Origin: an uncultured delta proteobacterium
GTDB taxonomy: Bacteria > Desulfobacterota > Desulfobacteria > Desulfobacterales > SG8-13
Length of the DNA stretch: 64,000 nucleotides
Reading direction: 5' to 3'
NCBI GenBank assembly: GCA_963848135.1
Contig: CAWKCK010000002.1
Coordinates: forward strand, 1 to 64,000
Below the pieces are notes generated by a model. That model made no database searches. It had not been told where the DNA came from and saw nothing but the letters and a program-made list of their open reading frames with translations. This document shows positions 2,885-42,477 of this stretch, piece by piece (position 1 is the stretch's first letter; every line of letters starts with the position of its first letter). The position numbers and the translations under genes were made by a program.

Positions 2885-2891
2885 ACTTAAC

Positions 2892-3849
2892 TTAATCGAT
2901 TTTCGTTTGTTTATTGTAATCACCGATCTGTATTAGTTTAGGAGATAATCGGTAAAATACCACTGCCTGGACTATTGCCATGATTTCCCCAATGAGTTTT
3001 ACCGGTATCCACCAGGGGTGTTTGAGATGATACTTAGTTCTTACCTCTCGAAAAGGCCGTTTAAAGATATACCATAGAACGGTCCCAACCATTTCCTCTG
3101 AGTAACGCATAATAATAATCCCCAACACCATAACGTGGAGAAATACTATTTAAATGTCCTCCTTTTGAACGGGTACCTCCACTTTTCGCTTGCAAGTGGT
3201 GGATGCTTGCTTTTGGCTCAAACCAGACTTTACCCCCACTTGCAACCAATCTTTTGGCAAATTCAGTCTCAAACCGCGAAGCGACTGGTGGCTTAAAGTT
3301 TTCATCAAATCCACCTATGGCCAGAGCTTGATTACGCTTAACGGATAAATTTCCCGCCATAGCATTTTCGACATAGACACCTTCTGTGCTTCGGAATGGA
3401 AAATTAAGATAACGTTTGAGTTGGCCACCTTTCGGGATATAGGGAATCGGTTCTGGCGACTGCCCTGGTTGCAACACTTGTCCTGCTACCGCCCATACAT
3501 GGGGTTTAGTCCTGTGCGCGGAAAGATGTTTTTCAATCAAGTTTTCGTTGGGGATGATGTCATCGTCAGTGAATAGAACAATATCCCCACGGGCTTTAAG
3601 TAATCCCAGGTTCATTGAGCGTGTAAGATGTGGCTGATCGAGGCGTAGCCATTTAATGGTGTCTGTATCTTTCCATTCCAATAAGCGATGTTCTGTTTCA
3701 AGTTCATGTTGCGAGGTTTGATCAACAAGAATTAGCTCAAGAAAACCTTTAGTTGTAAGTGCATGAGAAAGTAGGAATTCGAGTGTATTAATCAGTACTT
3801 TTTCGCGCTTATACGTTGGAATGACTATACTGAGCGTCAGCTTGGGCAT
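2892..3849 (-). CDS. Glycosyltransferase family 2; C-terminus continues in another frame (frameshift near 3080)
   Basis: SIVIPTYKR and LFTDDD motifs in 3061..3849; ORF 2892..3131 supplies a plausible C-terminal continuation. Confidence 0.85.
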
Positions 3850-3855
3850 TTGACA

Positions 3856-5004
3856 CTATTTTTCAATTGCCATTAATAATTCTTGGTAGGTTTGCTCGTA
3901 AGTCCATTGCGAAATTTTTTGTTTAGCCGATTTGCCCATATTAAATAAAAGTTCCTGATTGGTAACTATTTGTGAAAGTTTTTCAGTTAGCGAATTGCTA
4001 TCTCGATTAGAAAAGATAGCTCCAGTTTTCCACTCGGTAATCAAATCTGTGCCGGCACCGACTCCCTCAGAGGCAATTACCGGGATTCCACAGGCCATCG
4101 CTTCGTTAACAGAGACCCCCCAAGGCTCATTAATTGCAGGGTGAACAAAAACATTACTGATTGCATAATATTTGGGAAGATCGGAATAGGGGGCATAACC
4201 GGGCAAAAAGACACTATTCCCGATGAAATTTGCTTTCCTATAAACTGCTTCGTATAGGGGACCATCTCCAACTAGAATCAAACCTGAATTAGGATATTGA
4301 TTATTAAGCTTAGCAAAGGCATCGATTAATGTTATTGGATCTTCGCGGTCATTCCACTTCAATATACCCAACACAATAAAGTCTCTGGATGAAAAACCCA
4401 TTTCTGATCGAATGACATCACGATTAAGTCGATGCTTGGTTGATTCCACTTCAAACCAATCGTTATCAACGTTATAGGGAAAAAGAAATGTAGGCTTTTT
4501 CTTTTTTGCTATTTTCTCAAAATATTGTCGCGCGAGTGTACCAACCGGATGCCATGTGTCGTATTGTTTTAGCCAAAATGGCAGAGTCAATCGTTTGACA
4601 ACGCCTTTCAAACCCTTGAGGTTAGAATGATCGAGCGTATTATCAGATCTTAATCCAATACGGATTTTTTTTTTTTAAGCAGCCATGCTAGTTTAGCGTG
4701 TAGCGACGGGAAATATCCACAGAGAATGACAAGACTGGGTTTGAGTGATGCGATTTCATTTGATAATGCTATTACCTTAGTGGCGGCATCTGAGGTAAAA
4801 TACTTTTTTACATAATTACAAGTGGTTAAGTGATCCCACAGAGGAGCATGGCCGATTTCAGGATCGAATGAGGCGTCAGTTTCGTGCGCTACTGCTGTGT
4901 AATAGATTATTAAGTCGAATAGAGTATTGCGGTGCAAAAAGGCGTATAAGGGTACATCAAACTGCGTCGGCCTAGTTTGAACGATGATCGAATTTTGGTT
5001 TCAC
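3856..5004 (-). pseudogene. Glycosyltransferase family 4 (GT-B), split by frameshifts
   Basis: EPWGVSVNEAMACGIPVI motif in 3856..4611; N-terminal piece 4650..4937; one break at an A12 run (4665..4676), another near the GTG start at 5004. Confidence 0.82.
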
Positions 5005-8093: not shown

Positions 8094-8752
8094 TTAAAGA
8101 TATTTTTCATTAGGTGCTCTTGACCTAATAATTCTACATGGAGCACCATAGGCAAGAACATGATCAGGGATGTTCTTAGTCACTACTGAACCTGCACCAA
8201 TTACAGTATCGTTGCCAATGCTAATATCATTGACGACTTTCGCACCAAGATTGATAGAGGAACGTTCACCAAGGTGAAGACGGCCGCCGACAATTGTTCC
8301 CGGTCCAAGGCTGGACCACGGCATCATGATACCATCGTGATCAATAGAAGACGCTGTATTCAAGAGACAGCCTTCAGCGATTGAAGATCCACTGACAATG
8401 ATGGTTCCAGGCATGACGACTGTTCCTGCTCCAATTTTAACATCAGACCCAATGATGGCTGAAGGGTGGATGCAGGAAATAAATTCAATATTAGTGATCT
8501 TTTTTTTACGCGTTCAGACATCGCCTGACGCTGGTAGTTATCACCAATGGCGATGATAATTTTGTGTATATTTAGATCATTACATATTTGAGGAAGGTTT
8601 TTCTCGCCACCAAATATTTTGTATCCAAAACAATATGTACCTGGTTTTTGAAAAGAATCTAATAATCCTTCAATCTCATAGCGACCTTCAGCTTTAATGA
8701 CATCTGCGACAGCCCGTGCATGCCCTCTTGCACCGATGAGAATAATTTTCAT
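8094..8752 (-). pseudogene. NeuD/PglD-family sugar acetyltransferase (left-handed beta-helix), frameshifted
   Basis: IGARGHA N-terminal motif, hexapeptide repeats, IGAGSVVTKNIP; break at an A8 run (8500..8507) that A9 would repair. Confidence 0.85.
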
Positions 8753-9927
8753 CTTTTAATATCAGCGAAAATCCCTGAGGATATTTTTTCTTGCTGAAAC
8801 GAAGAAACAATCCTACATATTGATTCTATCTCATTATGTGCAATCTGAGTTCCGGTGGGAAATACTATTACACGTTCACAAAAACTTTCTGTTTCAGGTA
8901 AGTTGTAGTAGGCATCTGGGTACAATGTACTGAAGGGTTCCATACGGTGGCAACCTGGATAAAAGTATCTTCTGGCCAGTACATTGTGATTATGAAGCTC
9001 ATATAGCAACTCATTGCGTGTTTTACCGAAAGCTTCGGAAAAAATTTCTGCAACAACATAATGATAGTTGTTATGTTCTGATTCATTGTATGGAAGTAGT
9101 TTTATGCCAGGAATAGGTTCTAAGCCTTTATTATAAGCATTCCAATTACAACGGTTGGTCGAAATAAAATTCTCTAAGTCTTCCAGGTTGGTCAGCCCCA
9201 TTGCTGCACACGCTTCATTCATCTTTCCATTCGTTCCGATGTATATAACCCTATCCATACCGGCAAAACCGAAATTTTTCATCAGCCTAATTTTTTCTGC
9301 CAACTCATCATCATTAGTCGTAATTGCACCGCCTTCAAGTGAATTCAAAACTTTGGTTGCATGAAAACTGAACACTTCACAATCCCCAAAACAACCGATT
9401 AAATTGCTTTGTATGAACATCCAAAAGCATGGGCAGCATCAAATATTAGTTTTAACTTATAATTTATCCGCTATTGATTGCAAAGAATCAATATCACAAG
9501 TCCTTCCATACAAATGAACTCCGATAATGCCGGTTGTTCTTTGAGTGATATGTTTTTCAATTTTATTAGGATCTATGCAACAAGTTAATGGATCGATATC
9601 ACAAAAGACCGGAGTAATTTTCTGCCATTGTAACGCATGTGCAGTTGCAATAAACGTAAGTGAGGGGATAATCACTTCACCTGTCAAGCCAGCTGCTCGA
9701 ATGGCTAATTCAAGGGCAACTGTACCATTGCATGTGGCAATACAATGCTTGACACCTAAAAATACGGCAATACGTTGTTCGAATTCCTGGACCATCGGGC
9801 CGTGATTAGTCAACCAGTTATTGTCCAGCATCAGGTTAAGACGTTCAAAGAAACGATCACGATTACCAACGTTTGGCCTGCCTACATGCAGTATATGTGG
9901 GAATAATGGATGTTGACTGTTTTTCAT
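8749..9927 (-). pseudogene. DegT/DnrJ/EryC1/StrS aminotransferase, VioA-like, frameshifted around 9420-9460
   Basis: HVGRPN, CNGTVAL, SFHATK (PLP lysine), NGKMNE and RRYFYP across ORFs 9457..10020 and 8749..9420. Confidence 0.87.
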
Positions 9928-9986
9928 GGAGTAAATATGGAAACAATTGTGAAGGAATTCGTTATTTTGAACTACTTGTTTGGGAA

Positions 9987-10800
9987 TTAATACATTTTTT
10001 GACGACTCTTGCAATACCAAACAGATCTGTACTGCCTAATATTGAAACCGTTTTGTTTTAGGATTCGGGAAACCAATGCCTCAATATGAGGGCCATGAAG
10101 TTCCATTATTATAAGATCAACGAAAATAATCCAACTTTCTGGATTTGATAGAAAAATAAATTCTTCACCGCCCTCAATATCCATTTTTAAAATATCCAAA
10201 CATGAGATAGAAAACTTTTCTAAAATTGTAGGTATGCTTATAGCCTCAACCTCAGAGCCAATGTTTTGAATGGATGCACCTGTAGAATGTCCGCCAAAAG
10301 ACACGCGTTGATCGTTTGCAGATAGTGCCTTATTAAGTAAGATTGCACGTTCTTCATATGGCTTTAGATTTCGGACTGCAATTTCCCAGCTCGGGGGGTT
10401 AGGCTCAAGTGCGATGACTCTCAATTTCCGGAACCGCGAAAGAAAATATGCTGTGGTATCGCCAATGTATGCACCTGCATCTATCATCCACCTTGGTTCA
10501 TAGGTAGGACGGAAGTTGCCGTACTCCTCTCGGACAACATTATTTACGATTGTTCTCGCATCATCCGTCTTTGGCCGCACCAGGATTGAGTACCGAAGAT
10601 TGCGAAGGTTAATAGGAACTAGACAGTCGGACGATGGATTGACTGAGTTAAGTTGTTTGAGTTTAATCCAAGTTCGAAAACCATCTTTAAAAGTAATTGA
10701 GATGAAATCAATAAGGGTGGCACCGACTTTGAATGGTACTAGAATTATAACCTAAAAACCGGCGAAGCCAACGACGAAGGTTTTCAGTTAAAACACTCAT
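9987..10800 (-). CDS. FkbM-family SAM-dependent methyltransferase; N-terminus probably frameshifted
   Basis: IDAGAYIG, ALEPNP and LKMDIEGGE motifs in 9987..10580; likely true ATG at 10800. Confidence 0.82.
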
Positions 10801-13312: not shown

Positions 13313-14737
13313 GAGACCTTTGCATAACCCCCAGAAAAACATCTTGTGACCAAGCTCTTCTCTTTAAAATTTTGCAAATAAAACCCTTTAAATATCTATT
13401 ATTATTGCTTATTACTTGTTTTTTCCTTCCTTTTGTGCCATACATTTCATAATTACAACCATTTGGAGGATTGTATGGGCTACAAGAAAATGAAAAAAAA
13501 TTTAGGATTCGCCGATTTTGCTCTCTCCAGTTCCCTCAAACATAACCGCAGTCTTAAACTAATGGATAAATTTTCTAATTCCCTCGACTGGTCCAGGATC
13601 GATTCGGTCCTGATGAACCATTACACTGTCGGCACCAGCGGAGAAGGTGCCGATGCCTACCCGCCTCTTCTGCTCTTTAAATGCCTGATGCTCCAGAAGT
13701 GGTTCCGCATCAACTCCGACCCCGAGTTGGAAAACCAAATCAACGACCGGCTGTCGTTTAAAAAATTCCTCGGCCTGCCCTTGAGCAAACCCTCCCCGGA
13801 TCACTCCACCTTCTCGCGCTTCAGATCCAGATTGTCCAAACAAGCCATGGACCAGCTCAACTCGGAAATCCTGCGTCAATTTGAAGGCCGGGGGCTCACT
13901 ATCAATAAAGGCGTTGCTGTGGATGCCAGGCTTGTTAAATCCGCCAGTCGGCCCCTCAGCAATGATCAACTCAAAGAAGTTAGAGAACAACGAAATACTC
14001 CTGAAGGAAAACTCGATAAAAACGGCAATACCAGAAAGTTCTCAAGAGACCTCGATTCGAATTGAGTCGTGCAAAACGATGAACCGCACTACGGCCTTAA
14101 AGAACATGCCTCTGTCGATACCAAACATGGCTTTATTCTGGCTACCACCATGACTCCGGCTTCCGTGCATGATACCAACTACTTGCCCTATTGTACCGTT
14201 TACAGCCACCACACCAAACAGCCTATCGAAAAAGTATATGCCGACAAAGGATATGCTGGTAAGCCCAACCGGGACTTCCTGGCCCTTAATGAAATCGCCG
14301 ATGGAATTATGCGAAAGGACTCGACTACGGCCAAAATCACTGAATATGAAATAGAGCGAAACACAAAAATATCAAAAGTCAGATATATCGTTGAACAATA
14401 CTTTGGAATCAGTCACCTGCACGATGGAGCTAAAAGAGCAAGATTTACTACCATCGCAAAAAACAATTTCGATGCTTGGTGTCGCCAGGCGGCCTATAAT
14501 ATCCGCAAGGGATTAAAGATCCGGAAGGTCGCTACCGTATAAGGTGGATAGGTGCGCCCGGGGGTGGATAAAACCTGTGGGCCAGCTTGAAAACGATCTT
14601 GTAACACCTATTTAATGCCAGAAAAAACGTAATTTTCATGAACAAATTCTAATATCAGACTGAATTTTATCTCACTTTAGTAAAAAATTTGACAGAAATC
14701 ATAAAATCGGTAATCTAACCAAATTTTCAAAGCTCTC
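13313..14737 (+). mobile_element. IS5-family element (IS1106-like ends)
   Basis: Left end GAGACCTTTGCATAA; right end reverse complement GAGAGCTTTGAAAAT; TATAC directly repeated at 13308..13312 and 14738..14742. Confidence 0.9.
13475..14542 (+). pseudogene. IS5-family transposase with an in-frame TGA at 14063..14065
   Basis: SPDHSTFSRFR, VDARLV, YADKGY and RYIVEQYF motifs; ORFs 13433..14065 and 14069..14542 share one frame. Confidence 0.9.
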
Positions 14738-15215: not shown

Positions 15216-16042
15216 TCAGATCACATCCGCAAATTCATCCTCCATTCGTCTGAAATAAAACAGACCGGCAAAAAGGACGGCAAAAGAGAAGAGGGCGGTG
15301 ATGAGGATCTTTTGCCAGTCCATATCACCAACACCCAAAAGCGACCAGCGGAAACCTTGGATGATCCAGGTCATGGGGTTGAGATAAAAAGATCCATGTC
15401 AATTTTGGTGGAATGTTCTCAATGCCGTAGGCCACAGGGGTGACCCAGAACCAGAGCTGAACCATAAACGGTAGGGCATGGGCCAGGTCGCGATACTTAA
15501 CGGCAATGGCCGAGAAAAACAGGCCCAGGCCCAGGGTCAATGCAAGCCCGAGAAAAAGAAAGACAGGAAACAGGACGATCTCCCAGCCCGGGAAGAATGC
15601 CGTAGCACAGCATAATGACCAGGAAAATGCCAAAGGATATGACAAAATCGACACATCCGGTGCCAAGGGACGAAAGGGGAATGGCCAGGCGCGGGAAATA
15701 GACCTTGGTGATGAGATTGGCATTTCCGACGATGCTGTTGGTGGAACTGGACAGGCTGGTGGAGAAAAATCCCCAGGCCACGATGCCGCAGAAGGTAAAG
15801 AGAATATAGGGCTGGCCGCTGCTGGAGAGGTTGGCCACCTTGCCGAAAACCAGGGTGTAGATCAGGGCCTGGGAGATGGGTTTTGCCAAAGCCCAGGCGA
15901 TGCCAAAGAAGGCCTGTTTGTACAGGGCCATAATGTTACGCCAGGCCAGAAAACCGATGAGTTCCCTGTATTGCCAGAGTTCTTTCAGGTCGAGGGAAAC
16001 CCAGCCTTTGGAGGGTTCGATGAGGATGGTTGTTTTTTGCAA
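15216..16042 (-). pseudogene. wzm: Polysaccharide ABC transporter permease, frameshifted
   Basis: LKELWQYRELI, YKQAFFGIAW, LITKVYFPR, KYRDLAHALP and C-terminal EDEFADVI* spread over three frames. Confidence 0.87.
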
Positions 16043-16519: not shown

Positions 16520-17848
16520 TTATCGCTCTGCCCTATGCTCTATGCCCTCTGCGCTTAGCGCCATGCGCTCTGCCCTATGCGCCATCCGCTTTGCGCTTTC
16601 CGGCACGGGTAATGCCACAATGGCGGCGAGAACGGTGAACAAGATCGCATTGGCCGGGATGTGGAGGTTGAAATCGAAAATGCTGTAAAACAAGATGGCG
16701 GATATTCCTGACAACGCTCCAATGGTTGTGCCCCTTACCAGGCGGCTCGGATGGGCCAGCTTGGTAATACCTTTTTGAATAGAGCCCGACAATCATCCAG
16801 GCCATGATAACGATCAATGGAATACCGGCTTCGGAGATGAAATGAAGGTAGTCGTTGTGGGCCATGTAATAGCGACCCAGAATTCCCGGTGGCTGGTACT
16901 GGGTAAATATGGTGGCATAGGTTCCGGGGCCTGAACCGAGGAAGGGGTAATCTGAGATCATTTGGGCCGTGTGCCGCCAGACCAGGATTCGCGATTGAAG
17001 GCTTGCGTCTTCGGAGGTTTCTTTAAGGGTCAGGACTTCCTCGACGGCCGGTGTGCTGAGCAGAAAAACAAAACCGATAATAAAAAGGCCACCGGCCATT
17101 AACAGGAGAGTTTTTTTCGAAAAAATGTGACGTTTCGAGGCGAATAGAAGGGTGCCACCCATGAAGGCCATGCCAACAAACGCACTCATCCAGCCGCCCC
17201 TTGAAAGCGCGAACAATAGGGCCAACAAGATAAAAAAAGTGAATAGACCGTTGAAAATCTTTTGGGATTCCTTAAGGCCAGTAAAAAACATTCCCAGGCA
17301 GACCGGAAGAGCCATTGCGAGATATCCGGCAAAATGATTGGGATTGCCGAAGGTCGAAGACGAATTGGCGATTTCGCGATTGAGGCTGATGTCATAATCC
17401 CACCAAGGAAATGGATTGGCACCGGATTTTTTGATCAGACCGAATATCGACAGGAAAACAGGCCACGAATATGATGACTTGCAGAAGATGCCGCAGTTGA
17501 CTGCGTGTTGTTATTGAATGGATGGTCAGATAGAAAACGGCAATATAGTTTACGAGCAAGCCGAGTGACCAATAACTAACATACCTGTCGAGTCGAGAAT
17601 AGTGTCGACAAAAGAACGACAATCAGCAAGATGGCCAATGGTATATCGATGGGTGTTCTTATCCATTGCCATTCCCATGTAACGATTTTGTCGATGAAAT
17701 AGGCTGTAAGGGCAATTAAGGTGATGATGTGAATGACCATCATGGCCCATGTCGGGGCGGATCCCACGGCCAGGGGGGTGAAGATGAGGAGGGCGTATAT
17801 ACAAAATTGCGTGATACCTCCTAATATTTTATGAATTTTTTTTTGCAT
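16520..17848 (-). pseudogene. O-antigen ligase (Wzy_C) family protein with several frameshifts
   Basis: GNPNHFAGYL, LSRGGW, GSGPGTY, AHNDYL and FDFNLHIPANA motifs over several ORF pieces. Confidence 0.85.
16522..16598 (-). repeat. 7-bp-period tandem array, 11 units, consensus about (T/G/A)AG(C/G)GCA
   Basis: Minus strand AAGCGCA AAGCGGA TGGCGCA TAGGGCA GAGCGCA TGGCGCT AAGCGCA GAGGGCA TAGAGCA TAGGGCA GAGCGAT. Confidence 0.88.
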
Positions 17849-19100: not shown

Positions 19101-19201
19101 TCTCTCGCAGAGCACGCGGAGGGTTTAGAGTCTTAAAAAATTTTCAAAAATATTCTCTGCGCTCTCTGCGCGCTCAAGCGACCACGGGAGCGGGTGTGAG
19201 A
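19101..19201. repeat. Palindromic REP-like element overlapping the 3' end of the TPR gene
   Basis: TCTCGCAGAGCACGCGGAG ... CTCTGCGCTCTCTGCG ... TGTGAGA arms around an AT-rich loop. Confidence 0.6.
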
Positions 19202-20566
19202 TAAGACACTATATGATATCTTTTTTGCGACACCTTTGTCTTTACCCATGCGTTTTCGTAGCTGAATAAAAACATTCTGGTAGTGTTTGTTCGTCGGTTC
19301 GAGCACGGTGGCTTTTTGGATATTTACTTCCATGGCATCCCAGTCTTTTTCGATCTCGGCAATTCGGGCCAGCCAGTAATAGGCACCTGCATTGGGTCGA
19401 TGTTCATTTACGACTATTAAGATGCGTTGGGCTTTGTCGAGTTGTTTCAGATCGATGAATTTTTTGGCCGCAATGATCTGCATTTCAGGAGACAGGAAAA
19501 AGTGATTTTCGATTTCGTTGTAAAACTGAGAAAATTCGTTCTGGTGGCTCCTGTCGTTGAATATTTTCGTTATGGCATCGAGGCTCTTTTCTTTGTCCGG
19601 GCTGATGGTCAATGCTCGAATAAAATTGACGATCGACTCTTCGGTTGAATCATCGTAGAGATACAGCCGACCGAGTTGGATATAATCCCTATCGGAAATT
19701 TCTCTTTGGTAAGACAGCGTTTCTTTGAAGTGCTCAATAGCCTCGGGCCAGTTTTGCTCGTCTGCCAGTGCGTATGACAGCGAACGATGGGCTTCTTTGA
19801 CGGCAATTTCCTCGTTGATGGCCTCTTGAAGCCCTTTCTTGACAGCCATGCGAACCTCGGGCGACCACATCGGCTCTCTTTTTAAAAGATCGTAAACTCC
19901 GGGATATATGCGGGCCAATGATTGGGCCGTTTGAATGAGGCTTTCATTTTGACCCATTTGGTGTAAATGGCGCGCCAGGGCAAAGTGATACGGGATGCCG
20001 TTCGGCTTGAGCTTGATGGCCGATTCAAAATAGGGGAGAGGGTTGTATGGGTTGTTGGGGTTATCGGGATAGAGATATGGATAGAGTTGTTGCATCCGGC
20101 CTTCAGACTTTGCGAGCCCGATGACGGCGGCTGCATCCAAAGAATTGAGTTGGTTCGCTTCCAAATACGCTTTCCTGGACCGTTCGGCATACATAAAAGC
20201 TCTTTGAATCGAATCTTCCTGCTCCCCGATCGTACTATAGATCTCACCTATTTTTCGCCAGAAAATGATGTCGTTTGGCTGGTAGCTTATGGCCTTTTTC
20301 AGGTTTTGAACCGCAATCCAGTGGTGGTTGTCTTTATATGCTGAAATGGCCTTGGTGTAATAGATTTGAGACCCCAACCGTTTACCCACCAAGGCAAACA
20401 GGGTTCCCGATAGTGCGAGAACAACAATGCCCAACACCAATCGCAGCCAAAGGGAAGGGGGGGTGTTTTTGACTTTGGCCTCAGTTGTGCGGTGAACTCG
20501 GCTGGTTGGCGTAAGTTCGGTCATGACGCTATCCGTGTAAAAATCACTCTCGATTCCCCTTTTCAT
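19133..20566 (-). CDS. Membrane-anchored tetratricopeptide-repeat protein
   Basis: 477 aa, one N-terminal TM segment, repeated TPR-like helices (AISYQPND, AIKLKPNG, ATVLEPTN). Confidence 0.85.
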   Translation of the reverse strand: MKRGIESDFYTDSVMTELTPTSRVHRTTEAKVKNTPPSLWLRLVLGIVVLALSGTLFALVGKRLGSQIYYTKAISAYKDNHHWIAVQNLKKAISYQPNDIIFWRKIGEIYSTIGEQEDSIQRAFMYAERSRKAYLEANQLNSLDAAAVIGLAKSEGRMQQLYPYLYPDNPNNPYNPLPYFESAIKLKPNGIPYHFALARHLHQMGQNESLIQTAQSLARIYPGVYDLLKREPMWSPEVRMAVKKGLQEAINEEIAVKEAHRSLSYALADEQNWPEAIEHFKETLSYQREISDRDYIQLGRLYLYDDSTEESIVNFIRALTISPDKEKSLDAITKIFNDRSHQNEFSQFYNEIENHFFLSPEMQIIAAKKFIDLKQLDKAQRILIVVNEHRPNAGAYYWLARIAEIEKDWDAMEVNIQKATVLEPTNKHYQNVFIQLRKRMGKDKGVAKKISYSVLSHTRSRGRLSAQRAQRIFLKIF

Positions 20567-20748: not shown

Positions 20749-20910
20749 GTTCCTTTCCAGAAATGAGCAATTTTTCGCAAGTTCAAGGAAATTGGCGGCA
20801 TTGAGCGGATGCATACTCTCTCGTACGCCGCACAAACAGATTCCAGGCCTGTCACGCCCAAGGTGTGATTGAACCGAAATTGTGGCAAAGGACTATTTAC
20901 GGACGGAATC
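20749..20910 (-). mobile_element. Degenerate inverted copy of MITE family A, overlapping the wzc stop codon
   Basis: CAGAAATGAGC...GCAAGTTCAAGGAAA...GCCGCACAA...CCGAAATTG...GGACGGAA aligns with the reverse complement of 44416..44558. Confidence 0.75.
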
Positions 20911-23640
20911 CGACTCATTTCCATAATATTGCGCATAGTACTTGTGATAATATTTGTAATATCCCTCCTTTTCCACATTCACCCGGTTGAGCACGATCCC
21001 CAACAGGTTCGCTTTGGCATTTTCGAGCTGATTGATCGACTTGATCACCATTTTGCGGTTCATCAGACCGGATCGGCACACAAACAAAACGCCGTCCACA
21101 TGTGAACTCAAAATCATGGCATCTGTTGCCGGCAACAGGGGAGGGGTGTCGGCTATGACAATGTCGTATTTTTTTGCGAGAAGCGACATCAAGAACGCCA
21201 TCCGCCGCGAACCCAACAGCTCCGGAGGGTTCGGCGGTATTCTGCCACAGGGTAATAGAAACAAATTTTCCGCTTCAGTGGGCAAGACCGCGGAATCGAC
21301 ACTGTTGTGAATAAAGGGCAACGCTTCGTCTCCGAGGAGAACCTGATAATAGAAGTCGTGGACATCGATGGGGTTGAAGCTCAATTGATCATGTTCATAA
21401 GGGGAAGATTCCGTGAAGGTGAACCGGCCTTTTCCGACCTGCAGCGCGGTTCGGATTCCTTCCATCATGTGAATCGTCAGGGGGCCTTTGAGACCTTCCT
21501 CAGTTAAAAAACCCATATTGATTAAAATGAATCCGAGTTTTTGACCGGTGTCCCTTTGCTTGATGATGGCTTTTTGGGCTTGCTCTTTGGTAATTTTGGC
21601 ATTGCCGACCAACAAACTGGCCAGTTTTTTGTCGTCAGGGCGGGTCTTCCATTCGACATCGACCAGCGTGCCCTGAATAAACATCAAATTTACGTTTTCA
21701 TTGTCACTGTGTATGCTCAGTACACCGGTTTTCTTTTGAAGAGTTGCCAGTCTGAATAGATCGCTGACACTCAACCCACTGCCGATGTCTCCTTTGTGGA
21801 GCGGCCGATTGAACGTGTCGGTGAGCAGTCCTGTCAGGCCACTGGATTCGACCGGGTCAATCAGGTAACTCAGCTTGGGTTTTCTCAAATCCGCATCGAT
21901 CATCAATACCGACTGTCCGGTCTGGGAAATGGTAAATGCCAGATTGGTTGTGGTCAGCGTCTTGCCTTCCAACGCGCCGGCGCTGGTAACAAGCAAACTG
22001 CCAAGGTTTCTTTCGAGATACCGAAAGTTCATATTTGTATAAAGGGTCCGGTAGGATTCCCCGAAGCGTGAATTGGGCGAATAATTGGCCAGGAACAAAT
22101 CTTTAGGAAATTTCTCATCGCTCGCCTGGGTCTTTTTAGACCGCTTTTTATTTGTTTGCTTCCCGTTGGTGTCCGGTACCACTGTCAGCACGGGATGTCC
22201 GAGGTGCTTTTGCACATCATCTTCCGTTCGTAACGAACGATCCAAATATTCAAGAAACAGAATCAGCCCGATCGCACTGACAAGGCCGAAAACAAGACCC
22301 ATCAACAAATTCCTTTGTTTATTGGGGATGATCGGTGCCCGGGGCAATTCAGCCCTTTCCACAATCCGTATATTGGAGATGTCGATATCTTCGATAAGGC
22401 TCGATTCCTGTACTTTCGAGAGCAGGATATCGTAGAGTTTCTGGTTGGTTTCGACATTGCGTTGTAGAATCGTGTACTTGAGCTCGTTGCGACCTTCCTG
22501 AAGTGATTCACCTTCGAAGTCCGCGATGGTCTTTTGAAGGACTTTTTCTTTTTCGAACAGGATCGTTCGTTCAAACTTTAAATTTTCAACCTCTTTCAGC
22601 ACCTCTTCGTGCAATTTGCGCCGGGCTTTTTCCAAACGTGCCTTGGATTGAATCAACTTGGGGTGCTTGGATTTGTATGTCTTGCCGAGCTGCGAGTGCT
22701 CCATTTCAAGGCTCAACATTTGAGAATACAACTCGTCAATGACCGGATTCAAAATAACCGAACGGGCGTACAGAATATTGACCTTGTTGGTCGAGGAGGG
22801 GTTCAATTCTTTGAGCTTGGAATCGATCTCCAGCCTGCGGTTGCGGGTTTGGATGTAGGTATTGTTAAAGTCCGAGATCTTTTGACCGATCATGTCCTGC
22901 TTGCCGGAAAACGAAAACAGTTTGTTTTGCTGTTTGAAGGCGTAAAATTCTTCTTCGGCGTCTTCCAGATTTTTCTTCATCTCATACAGCTGGTCGGTCA
23001 TCCAGGTGAGGGTACTGCGCGACGATTTGAGGCGGTTTTCGATGTTGAACTCGATGTAGGCGTCAGCCAGTGCGTCGGCCACATTTTTGGCGGTCATGCG
23101 GTCGGGATCCGTGGCCGTGATTTTCAGCAAGCGCGTGTCCTTGACCGGCTCGACGAGTAATTGGCCTTTTAACCGCGAGACCAGCACGGGCATCTTGTCG
23201 AAGACGACATTGGGTTTCTCTTTTACACCCATGAGCAAATCGATGTTTTTCTTGAGGCTGGCAATGAGGGACTTGCGGGGTTGTTTTTCGATGACCTTGG
23301 CTTTCTGGACCACGTCCATTTCAAGCTTTGAAACGACCCGCTCGAGAACCGGGGTCGACGTGATGAGACTGAAATGGGTATTGAATTTTAAGGCCCCTAA
23401 ATAATAGGACTCCCAGCCGATCATATTGCCGCTGACCGGGGACCGTCGGCGTTCGTCATCGACGATGATGGTGGTGGTCGCGCGAAACACCGGTCTGAGG
23501 GTCGAGTTGTGCCAGGCGGCAATGCCGACGGCGATAAGGCAGGTGGCGATAACGAGCCATTTACGTTTGAGCAGCAGAAACAGATACTCGGTCAGATGTT
23601 TGGTTTGTTCGTTCTCAATGGTGGGTTGGACATCTGGCAT
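20893..23640 (-). CDS. wzc: Wzc/GumC-type polysaccharide co-polymerase and BY tyrosine autokinase with a DUF4388/MshEN-like insertion
   Basis: Wzz-type N-terminus, coiled coil, second TM, Walker A LEGKT, A' IDADLRKP, B ADTPP, C-terminal Tyr cluster GYYKYYHKYYAQYY. Confidence 0.93.
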   Translation of the reverse strand: MPDVQPTIENEQTKHLTEYLFLLLKRKWLVIATCLIAVGIAAWHNSTLRPVFRATTTIIVDDERRRSPVSGNMIGWESYYLGALKFNTHFSLITSTPVLERVVSKLEMDVVQKAKVIEKQPRKSLIASLKKNIDLLMGVKEKPNVVFDKMPVLVSRLKGQLLVEPVKDTRLLKITATDPDRMTAKNVADALADAYIEFNIENRLKSSRSTLTWMTDQLYEMKKNLEDAEEEFYAFKQQNKLFSFSGKQDMIGQKISDFNNTYIQTRNRRLEIDSKLKELNPSSTNKVNILYARSVILNPVIDELYSQMLSLEMEHSQLGKTYKSKHPKLIQSKARLEKARRKLHEEVLKEVENLKFERTILFEKEKVLQKTIADFEGESLQEGRNELKYTILQRNVETNQKLYDILLSKVQESSLIEDIDISNIRIVERAELPRAPIIPNKQRNLLMGLVFGLVSAIGLILFLEYLDRSLRTEDDVQKHLGHPVLTVVPDTNGKQTNKKRSKKTQASDEKFPKDLFLANYSPNSRFGESYRTLYTNMNFRYLERNLGSLLVTSAGALEGKTLTTTNLAFTISQTGQSVLMIDADLRKPKLSYLIDPVESSGLTGLLTDTFNRPLHKGDIGSGLSVSDLFRLATLQKKTGVLSIHSDNENVNLMFIQGTLVDVEWKTRPDDKKLASLLVGNAKITKEQAQKAIIKQRDTGQKLGFILINMGFLTEEGLKGPLTIHMMEGIRTALQVGKGRFTFTESSPYEHDQLSFNPIDVHDFYYQVLLGDEALPFIHNSVDSAVLPTEAENLFLLPCGRIPPNPPELLGSRRMAFLMSLLAKKYDIVIADTPPLLPATDAMILSSHVDGVLFVCRSGLMNRKMVIKSINQLENAKANLLGIVLNRVNVEKEGYYKYYHKYYAQYYGNESDSVRK

Positions 23641-23912: not shown

Positions 23913-24818
23913 CTACAACCATGTTTCAGGGATGTGAATGCGATCCCCGGGTGAGATCTTGACATCCTGAATTTTACCCTCGACCACGTCCTCGAGATCG
24001 ATCTTTATCACCTTTTGTTTGTCACCATCCTGACGGACAATCCGTGCGCGGTTCGGGGCGGCAAATTTACTGAAGCCCCCGGCCATTATACACGCGCTTA
24101 AGGCTGTCATACCTTCCTGATAATCGTAGGCCCCCGGGCTTTGGACCTCGCCTTCGACATAAATTTTCGATTCCGCCAGGTTCAAGGATGTACTCAAGGG
24201 GACATAAACAACATCGCCGGTTTGCAAAACAATGTTCTGGCTCATGTCGCCCTGGTCGAGTAGTTTTTTAAGATCAATTTTCAGCGGCGGTTTGGGAGGA
24301 TCAGAATTATCACTTTTTGTTTTGGCAGGGTCGGATTTTTCAGGGGGACGTAAAATGTAGGCGATATTGCCTCTGTTTGCTGAAACGCCGCCGGCTTTGG
24401 CGATAAGCTCCAGCAAGGTTGGCTGCGATTTCATTTCGTACAACCCGGGTGAACCGATGGCCCCGGAAATGTAGTAATGAAGACTGTGGTATTCGCTGAC
24501 CGTGACGGTGACTTCGGGATCGACCAGATAATCGGCAGCCAAGGGTTCGGTGATTTGACTTTCCAACTGCGAAACGGTCAGTCCGGCGGCCTTGATTGAA
24601 CCGATGAAAGGCGCGTTGATGATTCCCTGGGAGGATACGGTGAGTTGCGCAGCGTGTTGTTCTTCTCCACCGGCCAAAATTCTCAGTGAGAGGACATCAC
24701 CCGGACCGATGCGGTATCCCGTAGTTTGGGCATGAGACCTCTCGTCGATCGATAAAGAAATGATCGAGACGGCCAAACAAAGGAAAAATATGATACGTAC
24801 CGAGTGAAACAAAAACAT
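23913..24818 (-). CDS. Polysaccharide export (OPX/Wza-family) protein with Poly_export and two SLBB domains
   Basis: YRIGPGDVL, GIINAPFIG and IYVEGEVQSPG; ends GDRIHIPETWL with no C-terminal membrane helix. Confidence 0.92.
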   Translation of the reverse strand: MFLFHSVRIIFFLCLAVSIISLSIDERSHAQTTGYRIGPGDVLSLRILAGGEEQHAAQLTVSSQGIINAPFIGSIKAAGLTVSQLESQITEPLAADYLVDPEVTVTVSEYHSLHYYISGAIGSPGLYEMKSQPTLLELIAKAGGVSANRGNIAYILRPPEKSDPAKTKSDNSDPPKPPLKIDLKKLLDQGDMSQNIVLQTGDVVYVPLSTSLNLAESKIYVEGEVQSPGAYDYQEGMTALSACIMAGGFSKFAAPNRARIVRQDGDKQKVIKIDLEDVVEGKIQDVKISPGDRIHIPETWL

Positions 24819-24875
24819 ATTTTACACCATAATGTAAGTGCCGGTCGTAAATCCGAGCAGCTCAGGAACACGTCT

Positions 24876-25018
24876 AGTTTCCGTCCAATAATGGCCCTTT
24901 TTCGCAATGTCGGCGTCAATCGGCGGAATCGCTTGTGTGGCACACGACAGTTCGCCGCCGCGCAATATTTTGATTTCCTTGAATCTTCAAAAAATTGCGC
25001 ATTTCTGAATCGGAAACT
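24876..25018 (+). mobile_element. MITE family A, 143 bp
   Basis: TIR AGTTTCCG...CGGAAACT; colinear with and the same length as 44416..44558. Confidence 0.85.
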
Positions 25019-25055
25019 GGGCGGTGCCATTAACATACCGTTGGCGGGCACAAGT

Positions 25056-26240
25056 CTATTTCCTGCCGATTTCGTAAGCGAAGTTGAGCCTCGCAATTAC
25101 AAAGGTGTTGTCATAGTTGAGACCAGGTATATTCGAATCCCTGCTTTCATAGCCGGCGGCCAAGTTGAGGGCCACCCAGCGTGCAAATCGGTAATTGAGG
25201 CTACCCGAGATCGTATACGTATTGTCTTTACGCGGCGAAAGCTGGTAGTCACTGATCTGATAGGATGCCAGCGCATCAGCCGATAATTTCGATGTAAATT
25301 CGTAGCCACCGGACAGGGCGAAGCGGGTGGCGATGAAATAGTCACTATTAAAAGCTTGATCGTTCAGATTCTGTTCCGCTCTAAAGGTGGCGAAGGCTCT
25401 GCGCCTCTCCAGTATCTCGCCATCGAGGAGGACATTGTAAGTGAAGGCACCCGTACTTCCCAGGGCACCGTCTTTATATTTTCTGTTCTGGTAGCCGCCC
25501 CCGACAACCAGATCGAAAGATCGCATCTGTCTGCGAAAAAGGAGTTTAACCTGATTTGACGTGTAATCCGAGCTGACCTCATACTTTTTGGACCAATATT
25601 GATATTGGAGGTCCAACGAATTTCGGCGGTTAAGGTTATAGACAAAATCTAAAATACCGCGATTTTCCCATGAATCTTCGATATCCGCCGGATCGAGGTA
25701 ATCGATTGTGGTGTAGCGATAGCGCAGGCCAACGTTGAATTTGGGCCCAAATTCGTAAATCACCAGAGGTGTGACCGCATTAAGGAGGTATTTTGCCCTG
25801 ATAATCGAATCGCTGAATTGGTCGGATTGTCCTGGATCCCGCGTCAATCGCAACGTATCATCGAGGCCGACCTGCAGCCGGTCAAATGCCTGGTACCGCA
25901 TTTTTAAATCGCCGGTTTGCCCAATATAATCATAATCGGATGCGTTCCTTTCGAAGGCGGGCACCGGGTCCTGGTCGCTGTACCAATAGGCATCCAAAGT
26001 ATAATTCAACAGCACACTGGTCTTGGCTGTTTCGATCCCGAGATCGATACCAGGCTGAACCAAGTAGGTAAATACCGACCTTTCGTTGAAATCCGCTTTG
26101 AAATAATTGGAATCATAACGCCAGCTGGCGGACACTTTCGGGACGATGTCAAAATCAGCCGCTGCCCAAACGGACAGCGGCAGCAGCGTTACACATAGAA
26201 AAATCAATACAGCAAGCGAACCCAATTTAGCCTTATTCAT
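25056..26240 (-). CDS. Outer-membrane beta-barrel protein of polysaccharide export loci (BBP2/EpsX-like)
   Basis: Signal peptide, YDSN motif near the N-terminus, alternating aromatic beta-strands, C-terminal RDSN...YDNT strand; adjacent to the OPX gene. Confidence 0.82.
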   Translation of the reverse strand: MNKAKLGSLAVLIFLCVTLLPLSVWAAADFDIVPKVSASWRYDSNYFKADFNERSVFTYLVQPGIDLGIETAKTSVLLNYTLDAYWYSDQDPVPAFERNASDYDYIGQTGDLKMRYQAFDRLQVGLDDTLRLTRDPGQSDQFSDSIIRAKYLLNAVTPLVIYEFGPKFNVGLRYRYTTIDYLDPADIEDSWENRGILDFVYNLNRRNSLDLQYQYWSKKYEVSSDYTSNQVKLLFRRQMRSFDLVVGGGYQNRKYKDGALGSTGAFTYNVLLDGEILERRRAFATFRAEQNLNDQAFNSDYFIATRFALSGGYEFTSKLSADALASYQISDYQLSPRKDNTYTISGSLNYRFARWVALNLAAGYESRDSNIPGLNYDNTFVIARLNFAYEIGRK

Positions 26241-26400
26241 ACCATACCTGTTATGCACCGTGTTTTAAATGTTGCGCTAAGTGCGCATGAATTTTCAGTC
26301 AATCTATAGTGTACCCTTCAGGTAAAAGGCATGTGACCTTTTTGAATCCTATTCTCTAATGGCTTAGAGCTATCATTATAACCTAAACTCAGTAGTTTTC

Positions 26401-29023: not shown

Positions 29024-29941
29024 TTAATTGACTCTCCACTTGAAGAACAATTCCACTTGCCATCGGCACTTGTAAAGATCGGCAATCGTTATCGCCGGAA
29101 GGCGAAAGTGATTGGTCAAAAAAGTCAACCGGTTGTCGGTAAGCGCATCGTGGTATTTGATTCGCCTGATCTGCTCCGGATAATCTTTTTTGGCGTAGTA
29201 ATTGGCCAACACAATGATTTGGTCACAGCGCAGACCGCAGCTTTTATCGATCGGCCGCGAGTAAATGCGACGGAAGGCCAGGTTCGATTTTGAACGAATG
29301 ATGAAGAAGGCCGGCACCTGATGGAGCGTATAGAGCCTTTTAAAATCCAGATAGCCGCGATCCATGATATAAATCGAACCGATTTCAGCCTCCAGCCGGT
29401 CAAGGATGTTTACCTCATGCACCTTGCCATCGGTAATGGCAATCATAGAGGGAATATTGCCGCGCAAGTCAAGCAGGGTATGTAACTTGATTGCCGCTTT
29501 TGTTTTCCGAAATTGCGCCCATGGGAATACGGAAAGACATAGATCTATGATGGTCGCATCCAAAGCATAGATGGTCTCTTGCAATTGCAGACCAAAATCT
29601 TCACCGGCATAGAGTCTGCGGGCTTCATCGATCAGAATTTTGGCAAAGTCTCTGTAAATGCGCCAGTCACGTTTTTCATTCGCATCTGCTAATGTGCTTT
29701 TTGAGACTTTGCTGCGAATGCCCATGTGATAAAGCTTGTCCTGCAGGGCTCGCAGACAGCATTGGATATCGCGAAGACTTTCGCGGTATGTCAACTGAGC
29801 GAAGGCCATGCACAAAAACTGATCGTAACATGAGAAAGAACGCGTTCGATAATTACCGTTATAGCGTTTGACACACTGCCGGAATTTGTACTTGGGCATA
29901 AAATCGATGATCTGTGAAAAGACAGTTTGTCCTTCGTACAT
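29024..29941 (-). pseudogene. IS4-family transposase (DUF4372 + DDE), truncated at the 3' end
   Basis: MYEGQTVFSQ, LDATII and MDRGYLDF; stops right after YKCRWQVELFFKW; no terminal repeats recognised. Confidence 0.88.
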
Positions 29942-30044
29942 GGGCTCGACCCTCCTTTCAGATACTCGGAGGGTACGTATCAACCCGGCTAACTCGAATT
30001 CAAGTCGATAACACCGATATTAGCCATTATTTAACGTTATTTCC

Positions 30045-40212: not shown

Positions 40213-42477
40213 TCATTTGTCTGCTAAAGTAAAAACACAATCCCAGCCTTCCGGCGGTGGTGCTTTCTGATAATACCGGCATCGTTCAGCCATAGTACGG
40301 GACGGACCATCAGTCGGCCAAATCTCAAGGCTGCTCTTGAAAAGACCCAGCGCTTCATCCCAGTGCTGGCTACGGTACGCTGTGTATCCTGCGGCGTACT
40401 CTCTTAAGGCCTTTTCAAGCTCGTTTGGTAGAGACGCACTGGATACGGCCATGAGCTCGAAAACCCGGACGGATTTTTGACGACCTACAACTCGCACCCT
40501 ATCGATCTCACGCAGGTGGAAATCGTCCCTAACGCGGCGTGCCGTGTTTTCCCCGATGAGGATCTCAGTGTGGTAAAGCTTGTTAAGACCCTCTAATCGC
40601 GAGCCCAGGTTCACCTGGTCCCCGAGGACGCCGTAAGCAAAGCGATAGCTGGATCCCAGGTTGCCCACGAGCATGAGGCCCGAGTTAATGCCCGTGCGGG
40701 CGCTGAGTTGCGGGCGGCCCGTTGTGATCCACTCCGAATTTAAATTATTTCGCTGTTCGCGCATGGCAAGGGCGGCGGCGCAGGCCTTTTGTGCATGATC
40801 GGGGGCATCGAGGGGTGCCCCAAAAAAGGCCATGATCTCATCGCCCACGTATTCCTTGAGCGTGCCCTGATGGTGGAAAATCTGTTCGGTCATTTTGTCG
40901 TAATAGACGCTCAGGATTTCGATCATTTCTGTAGGGGAATAGCGCTCTGAATAGGTTGTAAACCCCTCGATATCGCTGAACAGAACCGTTAGCTCCTTTT
41001 CCTCTCCCCCAAGTTTCAGCTTTTCAGGCGCTTCGAGAAGCTCATCGATGACCAATGGCGCTACATATTGCTGGAACGCACCCTTGACTTTTTTACGCTC
41101 CCCTTCTTCGGTAACGTAACGGTACGCCGTCAAGACAGTATAATTCAGCGACAGGACCAGAAGGGGAAAAACCATGTTGAGCCAGACCCTTTGGGTGACG
41201 AAAAGCCAGCGCGCAGTGAAAATATAGAGCATGAAAAGGCCGACGGCCAATAACAGACCTTTAACCGCACCAAAGCGCGGTAAGGCAATTCCGGTCAATG
41301 CACCCATCACGATGATGGCCCCAAGGTCGAACACTTTTGACCACTTCGGTTTCGTTATGAACTGTTGCGACAGAAGGTTGTCGATAACGGTTGCGTGTAC
41401 TTCCACCCCTGGATAGAGAGGGCTGATCGGCGTGCTCCGCAGGTCTCGCATGCCCGATGCCGTGACACCGACCAATACGATTTTGTTCTCAAATACCCCC
41501 TCGGCAGTCCCACCGGACAGCACGTCACTAATGGAAATTTGCGGGAAGGTTTTCGGTGAACCGAGGAAATTGATCAAAAAGCCGCCATTTTCATCCGTGG
41601 GTATCCACCGCGTTCCCATCTGAATGCCTTCAATTCCATAATGAGCCACCTTGACCATGAGCTGCGGCTTGTCCAGGTAATGCCAGGCGCATAATAACGA
41701 TAGCGGCGGATAGAGGTCCTCTCCGCATTTTATGATCAGCGGTATCCAGCGTACGACACCGTCCTGGTCACTTCTCAGGCTATAGAAGCCTGACGACGAT
41801 CCTGATTGGTTGAAAATACCCAGGTTGCTTACCGGGGCAAAGGCCCGGATAAAAGGATCGCGATTCATTTCCTTCTCTTTATAGATAATAAGGGGGTATT
41901 TTGAACTGCTGATGTGGTCGAGCTGCGCGTTTATTTGACGCTGATCGATATCATAGTTGATATCTTCGGCATTCATGTGGAAAAAATAACCGAGAACGAC
42001 CGATGCGGTTGAATTCTTGATGGCGTTCGCAAGCACCCTGTCGTCGTCTGCTTCCTCTTGGTTGTTTTTTACGAACGCATTCACTTTCGGATTGTCGATA
42101 CCCATGGCGCCCATTTCACGGCTGAATTTTTCGATGAACTCCAATTGTGCATTTTGCGACGGTTCAAAAAAACCGATGTCGAAGCCGATAACCTTGGCAC
42201 CATTTTGGGAAAGGGTATTTACGAGCTTGGCGATCTTGGTCCTGGGCCAGGGCCAGCGTCCTTCCATATCGATGCTTTTATCGTCGATCAATGCCATGAC
42301 AACCGCCGGAGTCGGTTGCTGCTGACCACGTGACCGGAAACGAAGGTCATATGTTTTCAACTCGACCAGATCGAGGATGGGAACACCACCGAGGAAAAGG
42401 GACACAACGACAAGAATGGTGACCAATGTGATTGAGGTCGGATTGATTGCGAAGGTGGATTTGACGGAAAATTTCAT
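40213..42477 (-). CDS. CHASE2-domain class III adenylate/guanylate cyclase
   Basis: GRWPWPR, DQDGVVR, YPGVEVHA, three TM, LFSDIEGFT, YVGDEIMAFFGAP and VNLGSRLEGLNK. Confidence 0.95.
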   Translation of the reverse strand: MKFSVKSTFAINPTSITLVTILVVVSLFLGGVPILDLVELKTYDLRFRSRGQQQPTPAVVMALIDDKSIDMEGRWPWPRTKIAKLVNTLSQNGAKVIGFDIGFFEPSQNAQLEFIEKFSREMGAMGIDNPKVNAFVKNNQEEADDDRVLANAIKNSTASVVLGYFFHMNAEDINYDIDQRQINAQLDHISSSKYPLIIYKEKEMNRDPFIRAFAPVSNLGIFNQSGSSSGFYSLRSDQDGVVRWIPLIIKCGEDLYPPLSLLCAWHYLDKPQLMVKVAHYGIEGIQMGTRWIPTDENGGFLINFLGSPKTFPQISISDVLSGGTAEGVFENKIVLVGVTASGMRDLRSTPISPLYPGVEVHATVIDNLLSQQFITKPKWSKVFDLGAIIVMGALTGIALPRFGAVKGLLLAVGLFMLYIFTARWLFVTQRVWLNMVFPLLVLSLNYTVLTAYRYVTEEGERKKVKGAFQQYVAPLVIDELLEAPEKLKLGGEEKELTVLFSDIEGFTTYSERYSPTEMIEILSVYYDKMTEQIFHHQGTLKEYVGDEIMAFFGAPLDAPDHAQKACAAALAMREQRNNLNSEWITTGRPQLSARTGINSGLMLVGNLGSSYRFAYGVLGDQVNLGSRLEGLNKLYHTEILIGENTARRVRDDFHLREIDRVRVVGRQKSVRVFELMAVSSASLPNELEKALREYAAGYTAYRSQHWDEALGLFKSSLEIWPTDGPSRTMAERCRYYQKAPPPEGWDCVFTLADK

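Follow-up and report, generated by a model that had tools for sequence, protein, structure and literature searches.

What does a module of the kind that binds cyclic di-GMP (c-di-GMP) do inside the catalytic domain of a tyrosine kinase of polysaccharide export? This question is raised by a gene of an uncultured delta proteobacterium (Desulfobacterota, Desulfobacterales, SG8-13; GenBank assembly GCA_963848135.1), for which we analyzed positions 1 to 64,000 of contig CAWKCK010000002.1 (the whole stretch of 64,000 nucleotides is hereafter called the window). A preliminary description of this stretch had read the product as a Wzc-type bacterial tyrosine kinase (BY-kinase) in which a DUF4388/PATAN domain and an MshEN-like tandem motif separate Walker A' from Walker B. 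Here, this architecture was recovered by Pfam, NCBIfam, phmmer, Foldseek and an alignment to the CapA1B1 chimera (PDB 4JLV), and all strings and coordinates that had been quoted for it proved to be correct. It is almost certain that the protein is built by nesting, with an alpha-clip within a PATAN domain, which lies within the P-loop kinase domain of a Wzc-type co-polymerase. As to function, the complete proposal that this PATAN/alpha-clip cassette provides a c-di-GMP-type signal input to the Wzc cycle is, in our opinion, evenly poised.

The gene is intact. The list of open reading frames (ORFs) and the translation give a single, uninterrupted frame of 915 codons at 20893..23640 on the reverse strand (stop codon included; all features of the gene given below are on this strand). 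Based on TIGR01007 and Foldseek, the product is a PCP-2a/Wzc-type polysaccharide co-polymerase tyrosine autokinase, and it is 97-98% identical to a separately deposited 915-aa protein, P0002 (98% over the insert described below and 97% over the full length). The N-terminal co-polymerase part, fused to the kinase, comprises a Wzz (chain length determinant) region at residues 16-106 (23323..23595; PF02706, E 1.7e-7) and a GNVR domain at residues 392-462 (22255..22467; PF13807, E 1.7e-13). The BY-kinase model TIGR01007 scored 164.3 bits against a cut-off of 108 and was matched in two stretches, and the match to the CbiA P-loop family (residues 558-896) was split as well. Part 1 of the kinase domain (residues 514-607, 21820..22101), delimited by alignment to the CapA1B1 chain and by motif reading, contains an EX2RX2R-type motif (E528/R531/Y534), Walker A (A554-T561, GALEGKT) and Walker A' (LMIDADLR, 579-586). 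Part 2 (residues 780-915, 20896..21303), delimited in the same way, contains PPNPPEL (802-808) and Walker B (IVIADTPP, 827-834). All three Walker motifs expected of a BY-kinase are present (Walker A' as DxD), and the translation ends in a C-terminal tyrosine cluster, YYKYYHKYYAQYY, with eight Tyr (residues 894-906, 20923..20961).

Close relatives were collected by a word-indexed search with residues 600-780, which retained 61 of 735 candidates at 41-98% identity; together with the protein studied they form a clade alignment of 62 sequences. The tyrosine tail is almost invariant in this alignment. Since all catalytic motifs and the tail are intact, a pseudokinase was rejected. One position deviates: residue 534 (22039-22041), the third residue of the EX2RX2R site, which we take to be the oligomerization or ring-contact motif, is Tyr here and in the near-identical P0002, and Arg in 60 of the 62 sequences. 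A structural model of residues 501-915 built from 60 sequences (pLDDT 78, pTM 0.77) gave Wzc 3LA6, CapAB, Etk, BceF and VpsO as the best Foldseek matches of the kinase part (E 5e-12 to 3e-9).

The split of both kinase profiles is explained by an insert. In the 4JLV alignment, residues 514-607 pair with chain residues 51-143 and residues 780-898 with chain residues 147-266; therefore, about 172 residues (608-779, 21304..21819) stand in place of 3 residues of CapB. This agrees with the initial estimate of roughly 150-170 residues; the interval originally assigned to the feature (21380-21800) covers the PATAN part and falls short of the whole insert. The statement that BY-kinases normally lack such an insert was also borne out: besides CapB with its 3 residues, the other three BY-kinase ORFs of the genome match TIGR01007 contiguously and only the 915-aa Wzc is split, and 85 of the 150 homologs listed in the database search described below had no hit to a hidden Markov model (HMM) of the insert.

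The insertion point is about 25 residues beyond Walker A', in a surface turn that is only 3 residues long in CapB. An insert at such a site could be a structural embellishment, which stabilizes or reshapes the kinase ring without any signal input, and the R534Y change in EX2RX2R suggests that ring contacts may differ in this protein. However, this change occurs in just 2 of the 62 sequences, whereas the insert is present in all 62. Moreover, both inserted modules come from signalling families, and their ligand-site residues (see below) are conserved beyond the needs of a spacer. We thus consider the embellishment explanation improbable.

The outer module of the insert is a PATAN/DUF4388 (PatA_N) domain at residues 621-751 (21388..21780; PF14332, E 2.8e-13), interrupted by the alpha-clip. 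PF14332 scored 50.4 bits in the protein scan (cut-off 25) and 53.2 bits in the genome search (21385-21780). The match spreads profile positions 5-101 of 122 across 131 residues, which leaves room for the clip; the full-length profile (1-122) was not reached, as only positions 5-101/102 were covered in this Wzc and in further copies that are embedded in kinases. PATAN domains number six in the genome. In the other five, the match extends to profile positions 118-121 over about 100 residues each, and these domains are therefore without a clip, so that the alpha-clip is found in the Wzc copy only. A second PATAN/DUF4388 protein (L005, 63216-63998, forward strand) runs off the window; it is clip-less, with profile positions 2-121 in 100 residues.

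When residues 612-765 of the insert were modelled by themselves (pLDDT 94.2, pTM 0.86), the layout was that of a beta-sheet/helix core, the PATAN part, broken by four helices at residues 673-679, 685-698, 702-708 and 714-733. No confident match among solved structures was obtained for the PATAN core with Foldseek. VIA-align repeatedly placed this core (residues 1-149 of the insert model) near five PPC/DUF296-type structures (3HTN, 2DT4, 3HWU, 2P6Y and 2HX0; Z 3.2-3.9), a resemblance of the predicted fold that is too weak to use and may reflect a common arrangement only. That PATAN lacks a solved relative does not by itself make its fold a new one.

The four helices correspond to the inner module, an MshEN_N-like alpha-clip at residues 672-724 (21469..21627), which was supported by NF053729, phmmer, Foldseek and VIA-align. 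Its 53 residues follow the 24+5+24 layout, with motif I from K672 to Q695, a spacer from R696 to Q700 and motif II from K701 to H724; codon arithmetic places this unit at 21627..21469, exactly as first reported. The NCBIfam model for MshE-related cyclic di-GMP-binding proteins (NF053729) matched residues 674-717 with 39.6 bits (E 3.4e-10; cut-off 38) in the protein scan and scored 45.3 bits on the clip in a six-frame genome search. Thus, the HMM scan that had been proposed for DUF4388 and MshEN gave both domains above their cut-offs (50.4 versus 25 and 39.6 versus 38 bits). Weak matches to NF012033 and NF008411 (NfrB) were also located on the clip. Among PDB sequences, phmmer found Thermus PilF (6F8L, E 1.1e-8) and Vibrio cholerae MshE (5HTL, E 2.7e-4), followed by PilB proteins and isolated PilF GSPII domains. 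The clip aligns in register with MshE residues 9-61 (K672 with R9, L673 with L10, A674 with G11, Q695 with Q32, K701 with R38, G703 with G40 and H724 with Q61). With Foldseek, the predicted four-helix bundle superimposed on c-di-GMP-bound MshE (5HTL) with a root-mean-square deviation of 0.8 A over 52 residues at 36% identity, and on PilF GSPII-B complexes with 0.7-0.9 A (8PDK, 0.9 A over 53 residues). With VIA-align, MshE/PilF proteins ranked first among 48,161 representative chains (Z 7.0, 6.0 and 5.9).

The preliminary description had regarded the MshEN-like motif as a special feature of this kinase. The motif is real; it is, however, the known optional alpha-clip of PATAN and no extra invention of this protein. 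PATAN domains optionally carry such an insertion, homologous to the N-termini of ATPases of type II secretion systems and type IV pili (Han et al., bioRxiv 10.1101/2021.06.11.447907, citing Makarova 2006). Likewise, a clip outside kinases is found in the PATAN protein L022 of the same phylum, whose clip scores 63.6 bits on NF053729 and also matches positions 5-59 of the EpsG profile, approximately its N-terminal 55 positions.

How widespread is this architecture? All 61 close relatives contain PF14332, GNVR and P-loop families, and the names given for them are those of metagenome-assembled genomes (MAGs) of the 'Desulfobacterales bacterium' type. A HMMER search with residues 501-915 against 1.84 billion cluster representatives yielded 68,724 matches at E<=1e-3; among the 150 matches listed, the insert HMM recognized 65 of 149 new proteins. 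These wider insert-bearing relatives comprise fused proteins of about 900 aa and stand-alone kinases of about 400 aa, the latter encoded behind a separate co-polymerase gene. In the ESM Atlas, PatA_N occurs together with CbiA/AAA_31 in each of the three nearest clusters, which have 77, 73 and 89 members, and the commonest taxa of these clusters are Thermodesulfobacteriota and, in one cluster, Candidatus Eiseniibacteriota. Within the phylum, 48 of 301 sampled genomes had a PATAN-plus-clip match (E<=1e-10), and 11 of these loci outside the own genome were inspected, the other 37 matching genomes being left out. Nine (L013-L021) lie within BY-kinase ORFs by motif reading, and for L013, L016 and L017 Pfam confirmed the BY-kinase, with a GNVR co-polymerase gene upstream; L022 and L023 have no kinase motifs, and L022 is a PATAN-only protein by Pfam. 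Among the loci inspected, PATAN-bearing BY-kinases thus occur in 10 of the 301 genomes, the own genome included. The survey that had been suggested at the outset therefore gave a recurrent architecture, present in 61 close homologs, at least three ESM Atlas clusters and 10 of 301 genomes. One Desulfobacterales MAG contig (L011) encodes two tandem PATAN-bearing stand-alone BY-kinases (906-2258 and 2574-3890, forward strand). Three BY-kinases (P0127, P0113 and P0080) have a PATAN domain without a clip, with DUF4388 profile positions 1-102 in 74-83 residues and no NF053729 match.

Could the clip of this Wzc bind c-di-GMP? In MshEN structures, position 1 of each motif stacks on guanine, Leu-2 and two late Leu of the other motif form a hydrophobic platform, O6/N7 are contacted by the amides of Gly-3 and of the residue after it, and the last Gln binds ribose and phosphate (PMC5013675). 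The clip has Leu-2 and a late Leu/Ile pair in each motif, together with Gly-10 of motif II and Gln695, all of them conserved, and motif II is canonical except for its final residue. In the 62 sequences the insert is strongly constrained: L677, G703, L706 and G710 are invariant, and 90% or more of the sequences retain K672, Q695, K701, L702, L717 and L721. Among 48 wider relatives, the motif I columns show R28/K9 at position 1, G26/A10 at position 3 and Q25 at position 24, and the motif II columns R22/P12/K8, G36 and Q20/H17, respectively. Many wider relatives read RLG...Q in both halves, and P0147 and P0194 contain the published relaxed motif twice with an offset of 29 residues. NF053729 scored above its cut-off in 24 (up to 63.1 bits) and below it in 16 of 42 wider relatives, with no match in 2; these 42 are the proteins with visible NCBIfam output among 55 submitted. 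The genome also encodes a large c-di-GMP network, with 17 GGDEF matches and 27 PilZ matches above cut-off, and three further ORFs contain MshEN motifs. A prediction of a complex between a pair of chains (residues 545-915) and two molecules of c-di-GMP, run without controls, gave a score of 0.00 and a mark of 0.42 and speaks neither for nor against binding.

On the other hand, a number of observations speak against binding by this particular protein and against a c-di-GMP input. NF053729 clears its cut-off by just 1.6 bits in the protein scan, and the relaxed motif of Wang et al., applied as a regular expression, fits neither half of the clip. Motif I begins with KLA, that is, with Ala at position 3, and its position 11 is Lys; in motif II, the last position (24) is His. 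A Gly-to-Ala change in PilF9-65 shifts the dissociation constant (KD) from 1.8 to 19 uM, about 10-fold, and in PilF GSPII-A, which does not bind, the two Gln are replaced by His and Arg; even a perfect motif may fail to bind, owing to helix capping and inter-subdomain contacts (PMC12002112). Within the clade, Ala674 is found in 60 and His724 in 58 of the 62 sequences, a conservation that looks like selection for something besides canonical binding. The existence of clip-less PATAN-kinases implies that PATAN has a role independent of the nucleotide module. In addition, several neighboring genes are in pieces (see below), so the pathway may be non-functional in this strain.

The earlier caveat had been that the change of RLG to KLA and KLG could make binding weak or absent. 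One half of it did not hold: in PilF GSPII-B, wild-type K167 has a KD of 6 nM and K167R one of 150 nM, and the start of the consensus has been widened to (R/K/L)LG (PMC11731258), so that Lys does no harm at position 1 and may even be favorable. The other half stands, as Gly to Ala in motif I is a liability (PMC12002112), and a further liability, Gln to His at the end of motif II, had been missed. Because of Ala674 in place of Gly and His724 in place of Gln, weaker binding is predicted for the clade. Judged from these residues, c-di-GMP binding by the clip of this Wzc is somewhat doubtful and at best an even call, while relatives that keep RLG...Q are likely to bind, and the wider family very probably includes genuine c-di-GMP binders. 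Our reading is that the Desulfobacterales clade would have weaker binding or a retuned clip, and the Ala674/His724 pair may retune its affinity or its choice of ligand.

These two substitutions also bear on two other explanations. It is conceivable that the clip of this clade has shifted to another cyclic dinucleotide, such as 3'3'-cyclic GMP-AMP (cGAMP) or cyclic di-AMP, with Ala674 and His724 as specificity determinants. That two ligand-contact positions were changed and then conserved (60/62 and 58/62) would fit such a shift, and cGAMP signalling is present in relatives of this phylum. However, the idea is purely speculative, no MshEN-type domain with a different ligand was encountered in the MshEN/PilF literature examined, and we consider the shift highly improbable.

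Alternatively, the clip may have lost ligand binding, and the cassette may be a docking module that tethers Wzc to a protein partner; the TPR neighbor, a glycosyltransferase, Wzx/Wzy or a localization factor would be candidates. We consider docking, with any of these partners, unlikely, although it has several arguments on its side. In PatA-type regulators, PilB1 and PilC are binding partners of the PATAN domain (bioRxiv 10.1101/2021.06.11.447907), Ala674 and His724 deviate at ligand-contact positions and yet are conserved, PATAN-kinases without a clip occur, and the downstream TPR gene is kept in locus L009, where the order Wza, co-polymerase (Wzz/GNVR), PATAN-kinase and TPR mirrors the order Wza, fused Wzc and TPR of the window. 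Such a module would not, however, account for the complete or nearly complete invariance of the hydrophobic residues and glycines of which the MshEN_N ligand site is made, for a motif II that is canonical save its last residue, or for the relatives that retain full RLG...Q motifs, and its partner is so far only hypothetical. No support turned up for the link to polarity or MglA/MglB that had been raised initially, for which no dedicated search was made.

We therefore return to the cassette as a signal input, a regulatory role of some kind being probable. Wzc cycles between a dephosphorylated octamer, which supports polymerization and opens Wza, and phosphorylated monomers (PMC8285477). We propose that the cassette could act as an input to this kinase, in which the alpha-clip would bind c-di-GMP, probably with lower affinity in this clade, or possibly a related dinucleotide. 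Ligand binding would then move PATAN relative to the kinase core and bias the octamer/monomer cycle, and polysaccharide polymerization and export would track the level of the second messenger post-translationally. Since the cassette enters about 25 residues past Walker A', in a minimal turn, a change upon binding of a ligand or partner could alter the geometry of the nucleotide site or the packing of subunits.

In its kinase and co-polymerase parts, the protein resembles known systems. Wzc/Etk of Escherichia coli, CapAB of Staphylococcus aureus, BceF of Burkholderia and VpsO of V. cholerae share the combination of Wzz, GNVR and a P-loop kinase that has the three Walker motifs (A, A' and B) and a C-terminal Tyr cluster, the fold predicted for the kinase agrees with Wzc-family structures (3LA6, 4JLV, 3CIO, 6Z0P and 6U1Q), and a Wza-type exporter gene is adjacent here as it is for Wzc-type BY-kinases. 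Unlike these kinases, it has the extra ~172 residues between Walker A' and Walker B and Tyr as the third EX2RX2R residue. The cassette, in turn, resembles cyanobacterial PatA-type regulators (PixG, PixE and LsiR), which have the same PATAN with a two-repeat helical insertion at the same place. In known PATAN proteins, this domain is combined with REC or with further signalling domains, and the targets are the motors of type IV pili, whereas here PATAN lies inside an enzyme domain. Bd2402, listed as 'REC - MshEN_N - UNK' and as a measured c-di-GMP binder in the supplement of PMC5013675, might be a REC-PATAN protein, in which case it would demonstrate c-di-GMP binding by an alpha-clip. With MshE (5HTL) and PilF GSPII-B (8PDK), the clip shares the 53-residue unit in register at 36-38% identity, and PilF likewise has Lys at motif position 1; the clip differs by Ala at position 3 of motif I, by His at position 24 of motif II and by its location, as it sits within PATAN and does not form the N-terminus of a secretion ATPase.

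Two further systems combine an MshEN-type module with a polysaccharide enzyme. EpsG (TIGR03029) is likewise a BY-kinase of PEP-CTERM-type polysaccharide loci with an MshEN_N-like module, and 'MshEN_N - AAA_31' was already noted in 2016 for Methylobacillus EpsG-type kinases (Wang et al., PMC5013675, Supplementary Table 4). The module of EpsG is N-terminal and without PATAN, in contrast to the Wzc studied here, which scores 116.4 bits on TIGR03029 against a cut-off of 313.8, matches it from profile position 63 on and is thus no EpsG by this profile. NfrB of E. coli, a c-di-GMP-activated exopolysaccharide synthase of glycosyltransferase-MshEN architecture, has its module at the C-terminus and is a synthase-dependent glycosyltransferase, whereas our protein is a Wzx/Wzy co-polymerase kinase with a nested module.

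The surroundings of the gene are best explained by an exopolysaccharide locus of the Wzx/Wzy type that is akin to PEP-CTERM loci. The upstream neighbor encodes a short Wza-type outer-membrane polysaccharide export (OPX) protein of 301 aa with Poly_export and two SLBB domains by Pfam (23913..24818, reverse strand), for which the closest NCBIfam models, pepcterm_export, EpsE and EpsY, were all under cut-off. It is followed by a 400-aa outer-membrane beta-barrel (BBP2_2, EpsL-like by Pfam and NCBIfam; 25056..26258, reverse strand). A short Wza followed by such a barrel (23913-26258) is the arrangement of OPX proteins that have no pore of their own and use a separate barrel. The downstream neighbor is a 477-aa TPR protein (19133..20566, reverse strand; Pfam). 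Other genes of the reverse strand are fragmented. A DegT/DnrJ/EryC1 aminotransferase occupies two ORFs (8749-10020), with 9457-10020 corresponding to profile positions 5-137 and 8749-9420 to positions 158-359, and is either a frameshifted pseudogene or the result of an indel error. At 16520-17848, a Wzy_C/O-antigen-ligase-like gene is divided among four or more frames that overlap, and an ABC-2-like permease is in three pieces (15216-16042); the polymerase of the locus may be broken. Three insertion sequence or transposase genes (DDE_Tnp_1, DUF772 and DUF4372) lie in or beside the cluster at 1387-2742, 13433-14542 and 29024-29983, the second of them itself in two ORFs. The fragmented neighbors point to either a decaying cluster or assembly indel errors. 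Farther away, a 754-aa adenylate/guanylate cyclase with a CHASE2 sensor is encoded at 40213-42477 (reverse strand).

BY-kinases, PATAN and the alpha-clip/MshEN_N module are each known; the novelty lies in the host, a BY-kinase that houses one domain nested inside another. In the literature that could be searched, subscription journals and the PATAN paper of 2006 being outside its reach, no description of PATAN inside a BY-kinase was found, although Pfam/InterPro architecture tables probably list the combination. Search results judged by titles and the openings of abstracts included none on c-di-GMP binding to a BY-kinase, and nothing in the literature searched described an action of a second messenger on the Wzc-type co-polymerase kinase that governs Wzx/Wzy pathways. 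Control of polysaccharides by c-di-GMP is established at the level of transcription and in systems that depend on a synthase, with PilZ of cellulose and alginate synthases, PelD and NfrB as examples. We tentatively suggest, as a reading that is somewhat less likely than not, that in this family a cyclic dinucleotide might directly gate a co-polymerase/BY-kinase, which would be the first such case, with Wzx/Wzy export switched at Wzc.

Such proteins are publicly named 'tyrosine autokinase' or 'DUF4388 domain-containing protein', names to which annotation pipelines flatten a clean example of three-level domain nesting. The family offers a natural test case with built-in controls, namely relatives with RLG...Q, Ala/His variants and clip-less PATAN-kinases, of which P0127, P0113 and P0080 represent natural 'clip-deletion' controls. 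PATAN, whose biochemical role is poorly understood, gains here an enzymatic read-out in the form of autophosphorylation. If the proposed signal input is true, Wzx/Wzy-type export in these organisms would be switched post-translationally at Wzc itself by a cyclic dinucleotide.

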